A stretch of 56,348 bases of DNA from Candidatus Thorarchaeota archaeon (GTDB lineage Archaea; Asgardarchaeota; Thorarchaeia; Thorarchaeales; Thorarchaeaceae). Below, one piece after another: positions 36,613 to 40,496 of this stretch; position 1 is the stretch's first letter; each line of letters starts with the position of its first letter. The notes under the pieces are model-generated. The model had not been told where the DNA came from, did no database searches, and was given only the letters and a program-made list of their open reading frames with translations. The position numbers were made by a program, and so were the translations under genes. The stretch lies in assembly GCA_020348985.1 (NCBI GenBank), contig CP070761.1, forward strand, positions 1 through 56,348, in the 5' to 3' direction.

Positions 36613-37191
36613 CTAAGCAGACTGGGAGAGTACACTGGCTCTCATCGCGTCTTGAAACAAAATCTGGAACGCCTCAATTATGTTGAATCCCTGTCGAGCA
36701 ATGCTTTTGAATACTGGAACAGAATTGGGAACTCTGAGCTCTTGTCTTAGTCTGTCCTCTTCAATTGCTCCTGGCAGATCTTGCTTGTTCAGACAGATCA
36801 CTACTGGAAGCGGCCGTTCCTCGTCTGTTATTAGAGACATAAGTTCGCTCCAGCTGGCACGATTTTCTTCAAGAAGATGTTCCTGTGAGTCTGCCATGAA
36901 TATGACACCGTCAGTTCCCACCAGCACTACATCTCGAGTTGACCGATAGAAATCTTGGCCAGTTGCAGACCATACGTGTGCATTAATCGTCCAATTACCA
37001 GAGAGATGAAATGGAATAGTGCCAAAATCACAGAACATTGTTCGGCCGACAGTATTCTCAATTGATGTCAGCTTATCTGCAAAATCCATTGCTGAAAAAA
37101 GCCAGCGGATTGCAGTCGTTTTGCCACTCATTGCAGGCCCAAAGAAGACGATTTTGATTCCCACAGTTTGATTACCGTAGTCGATTATCAT
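36613..37191 (-). CDS. MglA-like small GTPase
   Basis: G1 GPAMSGKTT, switch I GRTMFCDF, G3 ATGQ, DGVIFMADS, G4 NKQD and G5 SIA. This is the MglA pattern (RTLFFDF / PGQ). Confidence 0.88.
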   Translation of the reverse strand: MIIDYGNQTVGIKIVFFGPAMSGKTTAIRWLFSAMDFADKLTSIENTVGRTMFCDFGTIPFHLSGNWTINAHVWSATGQDFYRSTRDVVLVGTDGVIFMADSQEHLLEENRASWSELMSLITDEERPLPVVICLNKQDLPGAIEEDRLRQELRVPNSVPVFKSIARQGFNIIEAFQILFQDAMRASVLSQSA

Positions 37192-37204
37192 TTACTTCTG
37201 ACTC

Positions 37205-38125
37205 CTAAGTGCCCCACATGCTATCTACCCAAGCGCCAAGTCCCGACAAGGTGCCTCCCTTCACGCAATCAGAGAAGTCTTCATGCCATTCAGCCATGAT
37301 AAAACGAATCAGCTCCGGCAGCTCTCCACCCTCCCAGCCAATGGCTTCATAGAGGTTCCTTTCTGTGAGAGCAGTAGACGCTCCAAGCTCTCTTGCAAGT
37401 CTGATTCTAGATAGTAATGTAACGGCTCTTCTGGCGGCATGAACGTAGTTGCTCACTTCCTCGTCAAACATATCATGCGTAATCTTCTCCGATTCATCGT
37501 CTAGTTTCAATATTGCTCCCATCATATGTTCAGGGATATTGACTCCTCGTAACGACTTTCGGAGTAGACGTCTAATTCGCTCAAGAGATTGCCGTTTCCT
37601 TGTGAGGATCTTTGACACTATTCGTTTCTCTACATCTAGGTTACTCTGATAGGGCTCCATCAATGTGAAGTTCAGGGAAGAAGGAGATTTCACTCTCAGA
37701 ATTCCACAGTTGACTGAATACCTAGCTATGTGCTTGAGAATCTTCGGAAAAGCGTCTCTATTCACATCGATTCCAAGAGCCCGTGCTCCAATTGGCAGTG
37801 CAACAACCCAACTTGAGAAATGCGTTATTCGTTCCAAAGCTAGACCTAAGTTCGACGAGAAACAGCATGCAATGGTTCTGCTCACTTCGTAGTTGTGTTT
37901 CTCTTCTTCCCAGACAGCAAGTAGCTCATCCTGTGATGTGAAGTCCCGCCAGAAGACTAGTCTATGGCGATGAGGACTTAGTGCGGCTACGCTATCTGAG
38001 ATATCATCTACAAGTTCCACATCTTCACCGGCCACAATAATCGGGAATCGGTTCAGTGATGAATTCAGTAGTAGTGGAAACTGCTCGCCCATCAATTCAA
38101 TCAGCTGCATAATCGAGTAAGTCAT
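37205..38125 (-). CDS. Hypothetical protein with resemblance to the folliculin C-terminal/DENN domain
   Basis: The N-terminal segment FPLLLNSSLNRFPIIVAGEDVELVDDISDSVAALSP fits the cDENN helix-strand-helix-Pro pattern. ATGA overlap with the roadblock gene. Confidence 0.55.
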   Translation of the reverse strand: MTYSIMQLIELMGEQFPLLLNSSLNRFPIIVAGEDVELVDDISDSVAALSPHRHRLVFWRDFTSQDELLAVWEEEKHNYEVSRTIACCFSSNLGLALERITHFSSWVVALPIGARALGIDVNRDAFPKILKHIARYSVNCGILRVKSPSSLNFTLMEPYQSNLDVEKRIVSKILTRKRQSLERIRRLLRKSLRGVNIPEHMMGAILKLDDESEKITHDMFDEEVSNYVHAARRAVTLLSRIRLARELGASTALTERNLYEAIGWEGGELPELIRFIMAEWHEDFSDCVKGGTLSGLGAWVDSMWGT

Positions 38126-39069
38126 GGTTCTCTCCTCGCTAGAATCAATCCGCCTTCAGATCCGCCTGAGAGCAGGAGATCTCGCAGGTCCTTGGGCACT
38201 GCAGATTTCATCGTTGAGGCTGTATTCAGTACTCTTCGAATCTCCATAATGTAATGTTTGAGTAGAAGCCGCATCAGACCTAGCTTCTGACTGTTCTTGT
38301 CCACCCAGAGACTGAAAACGCCATTTGGAACTGCGTATATGATGTGACGAGTATTCCCTGTTTCACAGAGAACATTCTGTAAAGAGCTATTACGAAGAGT
38401 GCGTACAACTCGGTCTGACGAATCATGAAGAGCAAAGGACATGGCGGCCAGTCGGTCGTTTGTAAAGCCATCAAGAGAGACCCTTACGCCTCCACTAAGT
38501 GCTAGGAATGCGGAATCAATATTGGGGATGCTGTCATGAACTTGCTTCAAGAGGGCTCTTAGAGCAAGTGCTTGAGAACGATCAAGTGAGATTATGGATC
38601 TTGATAGCGAGTAGGTTGTGTCACCCCCATCTGCCACCGTGAACCCCCCGAGAACCCTTTGAGTTTCGTCTGAACTATACGATCTCAGCGGAGGTAATCG
38701 GCCACTGATGTGTTCTTTCAAGAGAAACGAAACGCGCAAAAGGCTATCTTTCATTTCTATGAATAGAGCTGCGAGATTCACTCGTGGCGCTGTCGTGATT
38801 GTTAGGAAGTAATTGGGGTCATTTGGAAGTGATGCCAAGAAGACCTTTGATGTTTCAGATTCCATTAGAAGGTAATTGAAATTTCCGTGAATCAGCTTGG
38901 CAACACCAAAAATCGCACAAGTTGACGATGCAATAGCAAAAACCTCATCCTTGCTAAACCATACACCTGCGCTAGCCACAGGTAGACCGTCCTTTTGGAC
39001 GAGTATTACATTCTCCACACCTGTGATCATTTTGATATTCTGTAGTGTTTCGTTGAGATCCTCGGTCAA
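38122..39069 (-). CDS. Tandem roadblock/LC7 (MglB-like) domain protein
   Basis: Repeat 1: GVENVILVQKDGLPVAS..FAIASS..NLAALFIEMK. Repeat 2: NIDSAFLALSGGVRVS..LAAMSFAL..KLGLMRLLLK. Confidence 0.85.
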   Translation of the reverse strand: MTEDLNETLQNIKMITGVENVILVQKDGLPVASAGVWFSKDEVFAIASSTCAIFGVAKLIHGNFNYLLMESETSKVFLASLPNDPNYFLTITTAPRVNLAALFIEMKDSLLRVSFLLKEHISGRLPPLRSYSSDETQRVLGGFTVADGGDTTYSLSRSIISLDRSQALALRALLKQVHDSIPNIDSAFLALSGGVRVSLDGFTNDRLAAMSFALHDSSDRVVRTLRNSSLQNVLCETGNTRHIIYAVPNGVFSLWVDKNSQKLGLMRLLLKHYIMEIRRVLNTASTMKSAVPKDLRDLLLSGGSEGGLILARREP

Positions 39070-39120: not shown

Positions 39121-39127
39121 TATTTAA
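39121..39127 (-). promoter_or_regulatory. Putative TATA box for the roadblock-DENN-GTPase operon
   Basis: TTAAATA on the minus strand, about 52 nt upstream of the TTG at 39069. Confidence 0.4.
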
Positions 39128-39200: not shown

Positions 39201-40496
39201 CTACATGTGGATTAGGGCAGCATCTGGGACTTCTTGAAAGATTGCACGTGCCGCTTTCTCTACTTCCTTTCGATGTCGATCGAAAGTGTATACTCGAATG
39301 AGATCAAAGTATACTTTCATCATATCTGCAATGTTTGAGAGATCCGAAAGGTTCCGAGAGACACGTTTACCTTCAATCATTTCGTAGATTCGGATTTCCA
39401 TGGGGTTATGCTGATGCGGGTTGTAAGGTACAGACGGAAGCGTGGGAACATCGACAATGACATCTTCTGGATTGACTTTCGCTTTCTCAGCAATCTCTTC
39501 CTCTATGCTTTCACGTACCTTACGCTTGGTCAAAACCTTGGAGACAAAACGGTCTTCCGTGTGCAAAACTTTCTCGAAAGCGGACTTGTACAATACTCTT
39601 GAATCAAGCAGGTTGACCATTCTTGAAGCCTCTGCTGCATCTTCAGATTCAGAAGGGTCAATCCTCCTGATTCTTGATATGAGTGACATGTCATCTAGTA
39701 CTAGGAATTCTTCAGGAGTTTCAAAATCCGTGAGTCCAAGCACGCTATCGGCGGCATTCATGAGCTTGACTAGCATAACTTCAACGCTTCGGACAGTCTT
39801 ATGATAGTACACATTGAGAAACATCTCATATCTTGCTACTAAGAAAGATTCGAGAGCTCCACGGGCTGCTAGAGCAAACTCCAATTCGCTGTCTGCTGAC
39901 ACCTCGAGACTACTGATTAGGCGATGAATGTCAACCAAACCATAGCTTACGCCACAGTAGAATGAATCACGAATTAGATAGTCCATCTTGTCTGCATCTA
40001 TTTGGCCAGCAACAATTCCACTGGTTATCGCATCTGTCTTCTTCTTTCTCCTGCCACGGACAAGATTAGCGATTCTCTTCTTAGAAACCCCGCCATCTTC
40101 CAGAAGTTCTCCCAGCTCGCTTTCGAGTATAATCCACTCGGTGACATCCTCATGGTTCATTCCTCGTTTCTCAATGAGTGCCTCCTCAAAGACGTGGCTG
40201 AAAGGACCATGTCCAATGTCATGAAGTAGTCCAGCGATTCTGACCTCCTGAAGTGAATCGTCACCCAGACCAATCTTTCCTAGCAACCTTCGTCCCATAA
40301 GTCCTGCAAGATAAAGAGCACCAATGCAATGGCCAAAGCGAGTATGTTCAGCTGTAGGGTAAACGAAGTGGCCACCTGATAATTGCTTGATTCTCCTGAG
40401 ACGTTGATATGGTCCTGAATCGATTATCTTTGATTCAATATCTGTCAGACCAATGAACCCATGAACCGGATCGTTCACTTCTATTGTGAATTTCAA
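39201..40496 (-). CDS. HD-domain phosphohydrolase, SAMHD1/dNTP triphosphohydrolase-like
   Basis: DPVHG, QRLRRIKQL, HTRFGH, LLHDIGHGPFSH, DADKMDYLIRD and VYYHK. Confidence 0.9.
   Translation of the reverse strand: MKFTIEVNDPVHGFIGLTDIESKIIDSGPYQRLRRIKQLSGGHFVYPTAEHTRFGHCIGALYLAGLMGRRLLGKIGLGDDSLQEVRIAGLLHDIGHGPFSHVFEEALIEKRGMNHEDVTEWIILESELGELLEDGGVSKKRIANLVRGRRKKKTDAITSGIVAGQIDADKMDYLIRDSFYCGVSYGLVDIHRLISSLEVSADSELEFALAARGALESFLVARYEMFLNVYYHKTVRSVEVMLVKLMNAADSVLGLTDFETPEEFLVLDDMSLISRIRRIDPSESEDAAEASRMVNLLDSRVLYKSAFEKVLHTEDRFVSKVLTKRKVRESIEEEIAEKAKVNPEDVIVDVPTLPSVPYNPHQHNPMEIRIYEMIEGKRVSRNLSDLSNIADMMKVYFDLIRVYTFDRHRKEVEKAARAIFQEVPDAALIHM

Follow-up and report, generated by a model that had tools for sequence, protein, structure and literature searches.

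We analysed a three-gene operon carried by a 56,348-nt stretch of DNA (hereafter the window, i.e. positions 1 to 56,348 of contig CP070761.1, assembly GCA_020348985.1) from a Candidatus Thorarchaeota archaeon. The operon is probably the Thorarchaeota copy of a Roadblock/DENN/small-GTPase operon conserved among Asgard archaea, and it would encode a self-contained three-protein GTPase switch made of a tandem Roadblock protein, a DENN-like protein and an MglA-type GTPase. The Asgard operon itself is already known and was predicted in print in 2020/21: an operon ‘conserved in most Asgard archaea’, in which a small GTPase is encoded with a protein of the Roadblock superfamily and a DENN-domain protein, was reported by Liu et al. 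(bioRxiv 10.1101/2020.10.19.343400; Nature 2021), who propose its DENN protein as a candidate guanine nucleotide exchange factor (GEF) analogous to FLCN. Because the composition and distribution of the operon studied here match theirs, we filed it as already known; its value lies in the biochemistry of the trio rather than in having found the operon. All coordinates below are positions in the window, and the three genes lie on the minus strand:

38122..39069, minus strand: gene 1, predicted tandem Roadblock protein, open reading frame of 315 amino acids with a TTG start
38125-38212, minus strand: C-terminal tail of the Roadblock protein (residues 286-315), modelled at low confidence, with a short predicted helix at 293-300
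38122..38125, minus strand: ATGA overlap of the gene 1 stop and the gene 2 start, from the sequence and open reading frame coordinates
37205..38125, minus strand: gene 2, predicted longin-less DENN-fold protein, open reading frame of 306 amino acids with an ATG start
37205-37250, minus strand: C-terminal tail of the gene 2 product (residues 292-306), family consensus G-D-x-x-x-x-L-W-G, here GAWVDSMWGT
37192..37204, minus strand: 13-nt spacer between genes 2 and 3, read from the sequence
36613..37191, minus strand: gene 3, MglA-type small GTPase, open reading frame of 192 amino acids with an ATG start

The type of the GTPase was assessed with Pfam and with phmmer against the PDB. Pfam assigned the gene 3 product to generic small-GTPase families (Arf at 5.9e-12, Roc and Ras), and Gtr1_RagA stayed below its cut-off (3.6e-4, 20.5 bits for a cut-off of 22). 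The four best PDB matches were the MglA proteins of Myxococcus and Thermus (E 2.3e-26 to 3.3e-26, about 95 bits, best 95.8), whereas the next family, Arf/Arl, reached only 1.8e-8 and 37.5 bits. The protein has a P-loop (GPAMSGKT), a switch I with G49-R50-T51, a G3 motif S75-A-T-G-Q79 and a G4 motif NKQD. Its GRTMFCDF segment aligns on DRTLFFDF of MglA, i.e. the intrinsic arginine finger followed by the threonine, and its SATGQ aligns on TVPGQ, with the loss of the G3 aspartate that is typical of MglA and with the catalytic glutamine kept. Across 19 syntenic orthologues drawn from distant lineages there is no variation at G49, R50, T51, T77, G78 and Q79, and position 75 is occupied by Ser or Thr throughout. 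The product is a single G domain of 192 amino acids devoid of a C-terminal Roadblock domain. Judged by these sequence features and by the adjoining Roadblock gene, it is a GTPase of the MglA type. A side observation concerns a locus of another Asgard family, in which a second, distant small-GTPase open reading frame (L040:1480-2166, plus strand; E 1e-19 to gene 3) lies in divergent orientation beside the GTPase gene of the operon.

The gene 1 product matched Pfam Robl_LC7 over two stretches (E 1.8e-8). An AlphaFold2 (AF2) model (pLDDT 76.7, pTM 0.75) contains two complete Roadblock modules (alpha-beta-beta-alpha-beta-beta-beta-alpha) in one chain, at about residues 1-121 and 164-282, joined by a linker of low confidence. 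In the VIA structural search, each module superposed on solved Roadblock or MglB chains with a root-mean-square deviation of 1.8-2.2 and Z scores of 10-11.7. Domain 1 matched the crystal structures of the Thorarchaeota SMTZ1-45 and MK-D1 Roadblock proteins (7f8m/7yh1, Z 10.4) as well as MP1/p14 and the Rag C-terminal domains (Z 8-9.7), and domain 2 matched MK-D1 Roadblock3 (9jue, Z 11.7) and MglB (6hjm, Z 11.0; 3t1r, Z 10.7). The modelled fold is thus that of a two-domain, MglB-like Roadblock/LC7 chain, and its pTM suggests a packing of the two domains similar to that in an MglB dimer. In the alignment of the 19 syntenic orthologues, domain 1 and a PP motif within the linker hold most of the invariant residues, an asymmetry that would fit a pseudo-dimer binding one GTPase asymmetrically. 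The C-terminal tail (residues 286-315) keeps a P..D.K..L..L pattern across the aligned orthologues. It recalls, by resemblance only, the C-terminal helix of MglB that was reported to act allosterically on MglA.

The middle protein is less readily recognised from its sequence. No Pfam family matched it at E up to 1 and nothing meaningful was found in NCBIfam; PDB searches with the single sequence and with a 37-sequence profile yielded neither FLCN nor DENN proteins and only spurious matches to MBP fusions and ferritin. The family is small: at 50 % identity it forms 63 clusters in a set of 1.84 billion representatives, and nearly all of them have a length of about 290-310 amino acids. Copies about 70 % identical are labelled as Thorarchaeota hypothetical proteins, and the few labels of distant clusters read Helarchaeota and Promethearchaeota. 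Longer fused forms were searched between 701 and 2000 amino acids and none was found, which is weak evidence; the range of 536-700 lay outside the search. One member of 400 amino acids (P0129) carries an insertion of about 100 amino acids in a loop between core-DENN strands and a second one before the helical domain, which indicates that the core-DENN loop tolerates large insertions.

The AF2 model of the gene 2 product obtained from the 37-sequence alignment (pLDDT 90.8, pTM 0.87) comprises an alpha/beta core-DENN domain (about residues 1-160) followed by a helical d-DENN domain from residue 164 to about 290-303. An exhaustive VIA search of 48,161 PDB representatives returned DENN-module proteins as the five best chains, i.e. 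DENND10 (Z 13.4), FLCN (12.6 and 12.4), C9orf72 (11.4) and SMCR8 (10.8), and DENND1A scored 9.5. These alignments include 187-205 residues and span the model from residue 1 to 282-288, hence both sub-domains. Residues 1-282 align to FLCN residues 345-558, i.e. the FLCN C-terminal domain, and on every target the alignment starts past the longin domain (FLCN 345, DENND10 157, C9orf72 203, SMCR8 704 and DENND1A 170). Foldseek gave FLCN in its five best rows (probability 0.89-0.98). In the Atlas, the shape search retrieved clusters of FAM45/DENND10, SMCR8, Avl9/DENND11, DENND6 and SBF2 (TM about 0.5), and the language-model feature search retrieved clusters of C9orf72-like (0.94), SPA (0.92), Folliculin_C/SMCR8_C (0.91) and DENND10/11 proteins.

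Relatives of the gene 2 product provided further, sub-threshold signals. Pfam Folliculin_C matched 3 of 37 relatives, the best being P0133, whose residues 5-62 align on positions 4-62 of the profile (E 4.8e-4, 20.2 bits for a cut-off of 27), while P0132 matched at E 0.015; in one relative a DENN match was obtained at E 0.093. Using hhalign, the N-terminal stretch of the family was linked to Asgard longin + Folliculin_C-like proteins over 59 columns (E 4.4e-5, probability 69 %). A six-frame Folliculin_C scan of 301 genomes gave no match above the cut-off and did not pick up gene 2 of the operon at E up to 0.01; what it retrieved was the distinct, longin-bearing protein family described below. 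In the model, the cDENN helix and strand come first, with no N-terminal longin (u-DENN) domain ahead of them. We conclude that gene 2 encodes a predicted longin-less cDENN + dDENN protein of the DENN superfamily; as modelled, it resembles the DENN fold generally and shows no greater likeness to folliculin than it does to DENND10 or C9orf72. Its C-terminal W..D..WG tail is conserved family-wide, with a pLDDT below 50 at residues 292-299, and may serve as a docking peptide.

These results can be set against a first-pass annotation made from the letters of the window alone, which had proposed a tandem Roadblock protein, a folliculin/DENN-like protein lacking a longin domain and an MglA-type GTPase. 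The Roadblock reading agrees with the Pfam match and the two modelled modules, that of the GTPase with the MglA scores and the hallmarks invariant in orthologues, and that of the middle protein with the AF2 model and the VIA, Foldseek and Atlas shape and feature searches. Two segments of the middle protein had been paired by eye with FLCN. The first one (residues 4-51) proved to be the very stretch that gives sub-threshold Folliculin_C matches in two relatives and the hhalign link. The second one (residues 254-274) lies in the d-DENN domain and is, in position, colinear with the structural alignment to FLCN. Of the matches expected for 37205-38125, FLCN did come out in the top Foldseek rows but a Folliculin_C or DENN match in Pfam did not.

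The gene trio is conserved well beyond Thorarchaeota. In profile searches, gene 2 was found as a single copy in the genome of the window, and usually so elsewhere. Of 301 genomes sampled from the phylum, 172 contain the family, as do 67 of the 90 high-quality ones. By GTDB family, it occurs in 74/76 genomes of the window's own family and in 57/68, 15/19, 4/4, 4/4 and 5/7 of others, and it was not found in some families (e.g. 0/28, 0/11 and 0/11). In all 42 loci examined, belonging to at least nine GTDB families, the Roadblock, DENN-like and GTPase genes follow each other in this order on one strand. Such an arrangement is not due to chance, and it is the synteny that the first-pass annotation had proposed to look for across Asgard genomes.

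The analysis shows the order and coupling of the genes, the family and fold of each product and the conservation of the trio across Asgard lineages; beyond this, a mechanism can be proposed. The MglA-type GTPase would cycle like bacterial MglA, with its own R50 and Q79 performing GTP hydrolysis. The fused double-Roadblock protein would be the single-chain equivalent of an MglB dimer, binding one GTPase and acting as a GTPase-activating protein (GAP) or as a platform by positioning R50 and Q79 of the GTPase. The longin-less cDENN-dDENN protein would be a third regulator, for which nucleotide exchange is, tentatively, the most likely role; otherwise it would be a scaffold or a co-regulator, and it may dock via the conserved W..D..WG tail. 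It may also form with the Roadblock protein a ‘split’ DENN module, in which the Roadblock protein takes the place of the longin/u-DENN domain. According to a proposal by Zhang et al. (2012), the longin domain of DENN modules derived from MglB-like Roadblock GAPs of MglA-like GTPases, and in this light the operon looks like a split precursor of the DENN module. That the double-Roadblock and longin-less DENN proteins do make up a ‘split’ tripartite DENN module acting as GEF and/or GAP on the MglA-type GTPase is a rather doubtful extension. Complex prediction with the three chains given as alignments and the DENN-like protein as partner scored 0.00 and 0.02 for a mark of 0.32, a run without controls that is no evidence either way.

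Several points weigh against the proposal of a three-protein switch as a copy of the published operon. Identity with the operon of Liu et al. was judged by composition and distribution and not by accession numbers, and these authors name the GTPase ‘Rab-like’ and the Roadblock protein ‘LAMTOR1-like’. The middle protein of the window itself has no Pfam match, its relatives remain under the Folliculin_C cut-off, and the Foldseek E-values of its model are weak (6e-3 to 1.4e-2, TM 0.25-0.39). Transcription is supported by just one 233-nt metatranscriptome contig, 100 % identical to positions 37786-38018 inside gene 2; the sediment run from which it came covered no other part of the operon and says nothing on co-transcription. 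Moreover, the catalytic (GAP) element of FLCN and C9orf72-SMCR8 is the longin domain, which is missing from the gene 2 product, and the DENN domains of these proteins are structural, which by analogy would argue for a scaffold as much as for a GEF.

In the same trio, the DENN-like protein could indeed serve as scaffold, localisation factor, effector or co-GAP and not as an exchange factor, exchange being then intrinsic or supplied by the C-terminal tail of the Roadblock protein, as reported for the Ct-helix of MglB. We regard this as a quite conceivable alternative. It draws on the lack, in the gene 2 product, of a longin domain and of any sequence match to catalytic DENN Rab-GEFs, and on closest folds that include the non-GEF DENN domains of FLCN, SMCR8, C9orf72 and DENND10; MglB has been described as bifunctional through its C-terminal helix, the Roadblock protein continues past domain 2 in a conserved tail with a short helix, and a precedent for a co-GAP is given by RomY, which assists MglB in Myxococcus (PMC9481161). 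The DENN domains of FLCN-FNIP and C9orf72-SMCR8 are further precedents for such a role. However, the true Rab GEFs DENND1A/B also match both sub-domains of the gene 2 model (Z 9.5; Foldseek rows 12, 15 and 22), and the tests run here do not separate a GEF from a scaffold. A more radical alternative takes the middle protein for a degenerate P-loop/RecA-like ATPase core capped by a helical lid, whose likeness to DENN would be a convergence on the three-layer alpha/beta sandwich. PilT/GspE/FlaI, RuvB-like, RecA/KaiC and clamp-loader cores do align to the model (Z 7-9.8), and AAA+ proteins occur among the weak Foldseek rows; this resemblance of the core-DENN domain to P-loop ATPase cores also counts against the DENN assignment. 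These ATPases, though, cover the first domain only (residues 1-160), whereas DENN proteins cover both and rank first; the independent sequence-feature neighbours are all DENN-superfamily clusters, and relatives give weak Folliculin_C and DENN matches in Pfam. In addition, no Walker A motif was found in the gene 2 product, where VAGEDVEL follows strand 1, or in the consensus of the 37-sequence alignment, which has no GK[ST], and this argues against an active ATPase. An ATPase origin is very improbable.

The first-pass annotation had labelled the operon a candidate ancestral Rag/Ragulator/FLCN-like switch. Descent of the eukaryotic Rag-Ragulator-folliculin nutrient-sensing complex directly from this operon would account for the combination of a Roadblock protein, a GTPase and an FLCN-C-like fold in one unit and for the match of Roadblock domain 1 to MP1/p14 and the Rag C-terminal domains, and the same analogy is drawn by Liu et al. 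Against it, the GTPase scores as MglA (95 bits) and not as Rag (sub-threshold Gtr1_RagA), and it lacks the C-terminal Roadblock domain of Rag proteins. Liu et al. themselves set the operon GTPase apart from Rag, although Rag-like GTPases are abundant in Asgard archaea. Neither a longin domain nor an arginine-finger element was found in the middle protein, and DENND10, C9orf72 and SMCR8 match it as well as FLCN does, so that its fold is not folliculin-specific. We therefore hold such direct ancestry to be improbable and the ‘ancestral Rag/Ragulator’ label to be unproven; the link with Rag, Ragulator and FLCN is one of analogy only.

In eukaryotes, DENN modules and Roadblock/longin platforms play a central part in regulating the Rab, Rag and Arf GTPases of membrane traffic and nutrient signalling. 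The operon bears on how eukaryotic GTPase regulators arose, and a compact archaeal trio offers a tractable system for asking what the DENN domain did before eukaryotes. Were the split-module proposal true, the operon would be a living intermediate in which an MglB-like Roadblock/longin platform joins a DENN core on the way to eukaryotic DENN modules, and MglA-like GTPases would be the original DENN clients. Our literature search found no paper testing the Roadblock-DENN-GTPase operon experimentally. Tran et al. (2024) solved single-domain Asgard Roadblock proteins and a Thor Rab and noted that MglA-like GTPases are predicted in MK-D1, but the operon is not a subject of their study.

The layout of the operon and its flanks was read from the sequence. 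Three co-directional genes with an ATGA overlap and a 13-nt gap had been announced by the first-pass annotation, and both the open reading frame list and the sequence agree with it. The ATG of gene 2 overlaps the TGA of gene 1 (38125-38122), which points to translational coupling of these two genes, and a Shine-Dalgarno-like AGGAG (37206-37202) overlaps the gene 2 stop codon ahead of gene 3. The TTG start of gene 1 is the position at which Thorarchaeota orthologues begin in the alignment. Two further features lie upstream of the operon:

39121..39127, minus strand: TATA-like box TTAAATA, about 52 nt upstream of the gene 1 TTG, read from the sequence
39201-40496, minus strand: gene of an HD-domain protein, directly upstream of the operon in the window

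The TATA-like box that had been attributed to the operon is present as claimed (TTAAATA at 39127-39121); it sits within the 131-nt gap between the HD-domain gene and the Roadblock gene TTG and is a putative promoter element. The distance of about 115 nt that had been given between the GTPase gene and pyrG is correct if pyrG starts at TTG 36497, which is preceded by GAGGAG and stands just before the conserved pyrG N-terminus TRFVFVTGG. The longest pyrG open reading frame, starting at GTG 36635, would overlap the 3' end of the GTPase gene by 23 nt and was for this reason taken as over-extended; from the sequence and the usual PyrG N-terminus, TTG 36497 seems the more plausible start. The HD-domain gene accompanies the operon solely in loci of the window's own GTDB family and not in those of other Asgard families.

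A distinct group of Asgard proteins combines longin and Folliculin_C-like regions in 307-339 amino acids and occurs in GTDB families for which the search returned no copy of the operon (f5 and f21). Five of them were located, each identified by a locus and its coordinates:

L043:1171-2091, plus strand: longin + Folliculin_C-like protein
L044:1000-1977, plus strand: longin + Folliculin_C-like protein
L045:232-1248, minus strand: longin + Folliculin_C-like protein
L046:1096-2016, minus strand: longin + Folliculin_C-like protein
L047:1203-2219, minus strand: longin + Folliculin_C-like protein

They have a weak Fuz_longin_1 N-terminus (3.3e-3) followed by a weak start of Folliculin_C (E 3e-4 to 1.6e-3), and at these five loci no Roadblock or GTPase gene adjoins theirs; one neighbour in L043 and L046 is a gene of the PAC2 family. 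In family f5, the operon was found in 0/28 genomes and these proteins in 12/28. This FLCN-like fused arrangement is apparently complementary in its distribution to the split operon.

Lastly, the operon was compared with known systems. The Rag-Ragulator-FLCN lysosomal complex relies on a Rag-type GTPase with a C-terminal Roadblock domain and on a longin arginine-finger GAP, and neither was found here. The longin + Folliculin_C-like Asgard proteins share the N-terminal cDENN segment with the gene 2 family but carry a longin-like N-terminal domain that the gene 2 product does not have. Eukaryotic DENN modules, i.e. FLCN-C (3v42, 6nzd), C9orf72-SMCR8 (7o2w, 6lt0), DENND10 (8p0v) and DENND1A/B-Rab35 (6ekk, 3tw8), resemble the gene 2 model by a cDENN alpha/beta sandwich followed by a helical d-DENN domain (Z 9.5-13.4 over 187-205 aligned residues). 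Unlike them, the gene 2 product is a stand-alone protein of 306 amino acids with no N-terminal longin/u-DENN domain and an identity of 9-12 %, and its client would presumably be an MglA-type GTPase instead of Rab, Rag or Arf. The Asgard operon of Liu et al. has the same three components, the same broad Asgard conservation and the same hypothesis of an FLCN-like GEF, but the GTPase of the window is classed here as MglA-type and not Rab-like, and its Roadblock protein as a two-domain fusion. Finally, the bacterial MglA-MglB polarity switch of Thermus thermophilus and Myxococcus xanthus (3t12, 3t1q, 6hjh, 6hjm) shares with the operon the switch-I Arg-Thr, the lost G3 aspartate and the catalytic glutamine of the GTPase, together with a partner gene for Roadblock domains. 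In MglB, two chains of one domain each pair as a homodimer, whereas the Roadblock protein of the operon carries two diverged domains fused in a single chain, and to the two components of the bacterial systems, which have no DENN-fold partner, the operon adds a predicted third one of that fold.

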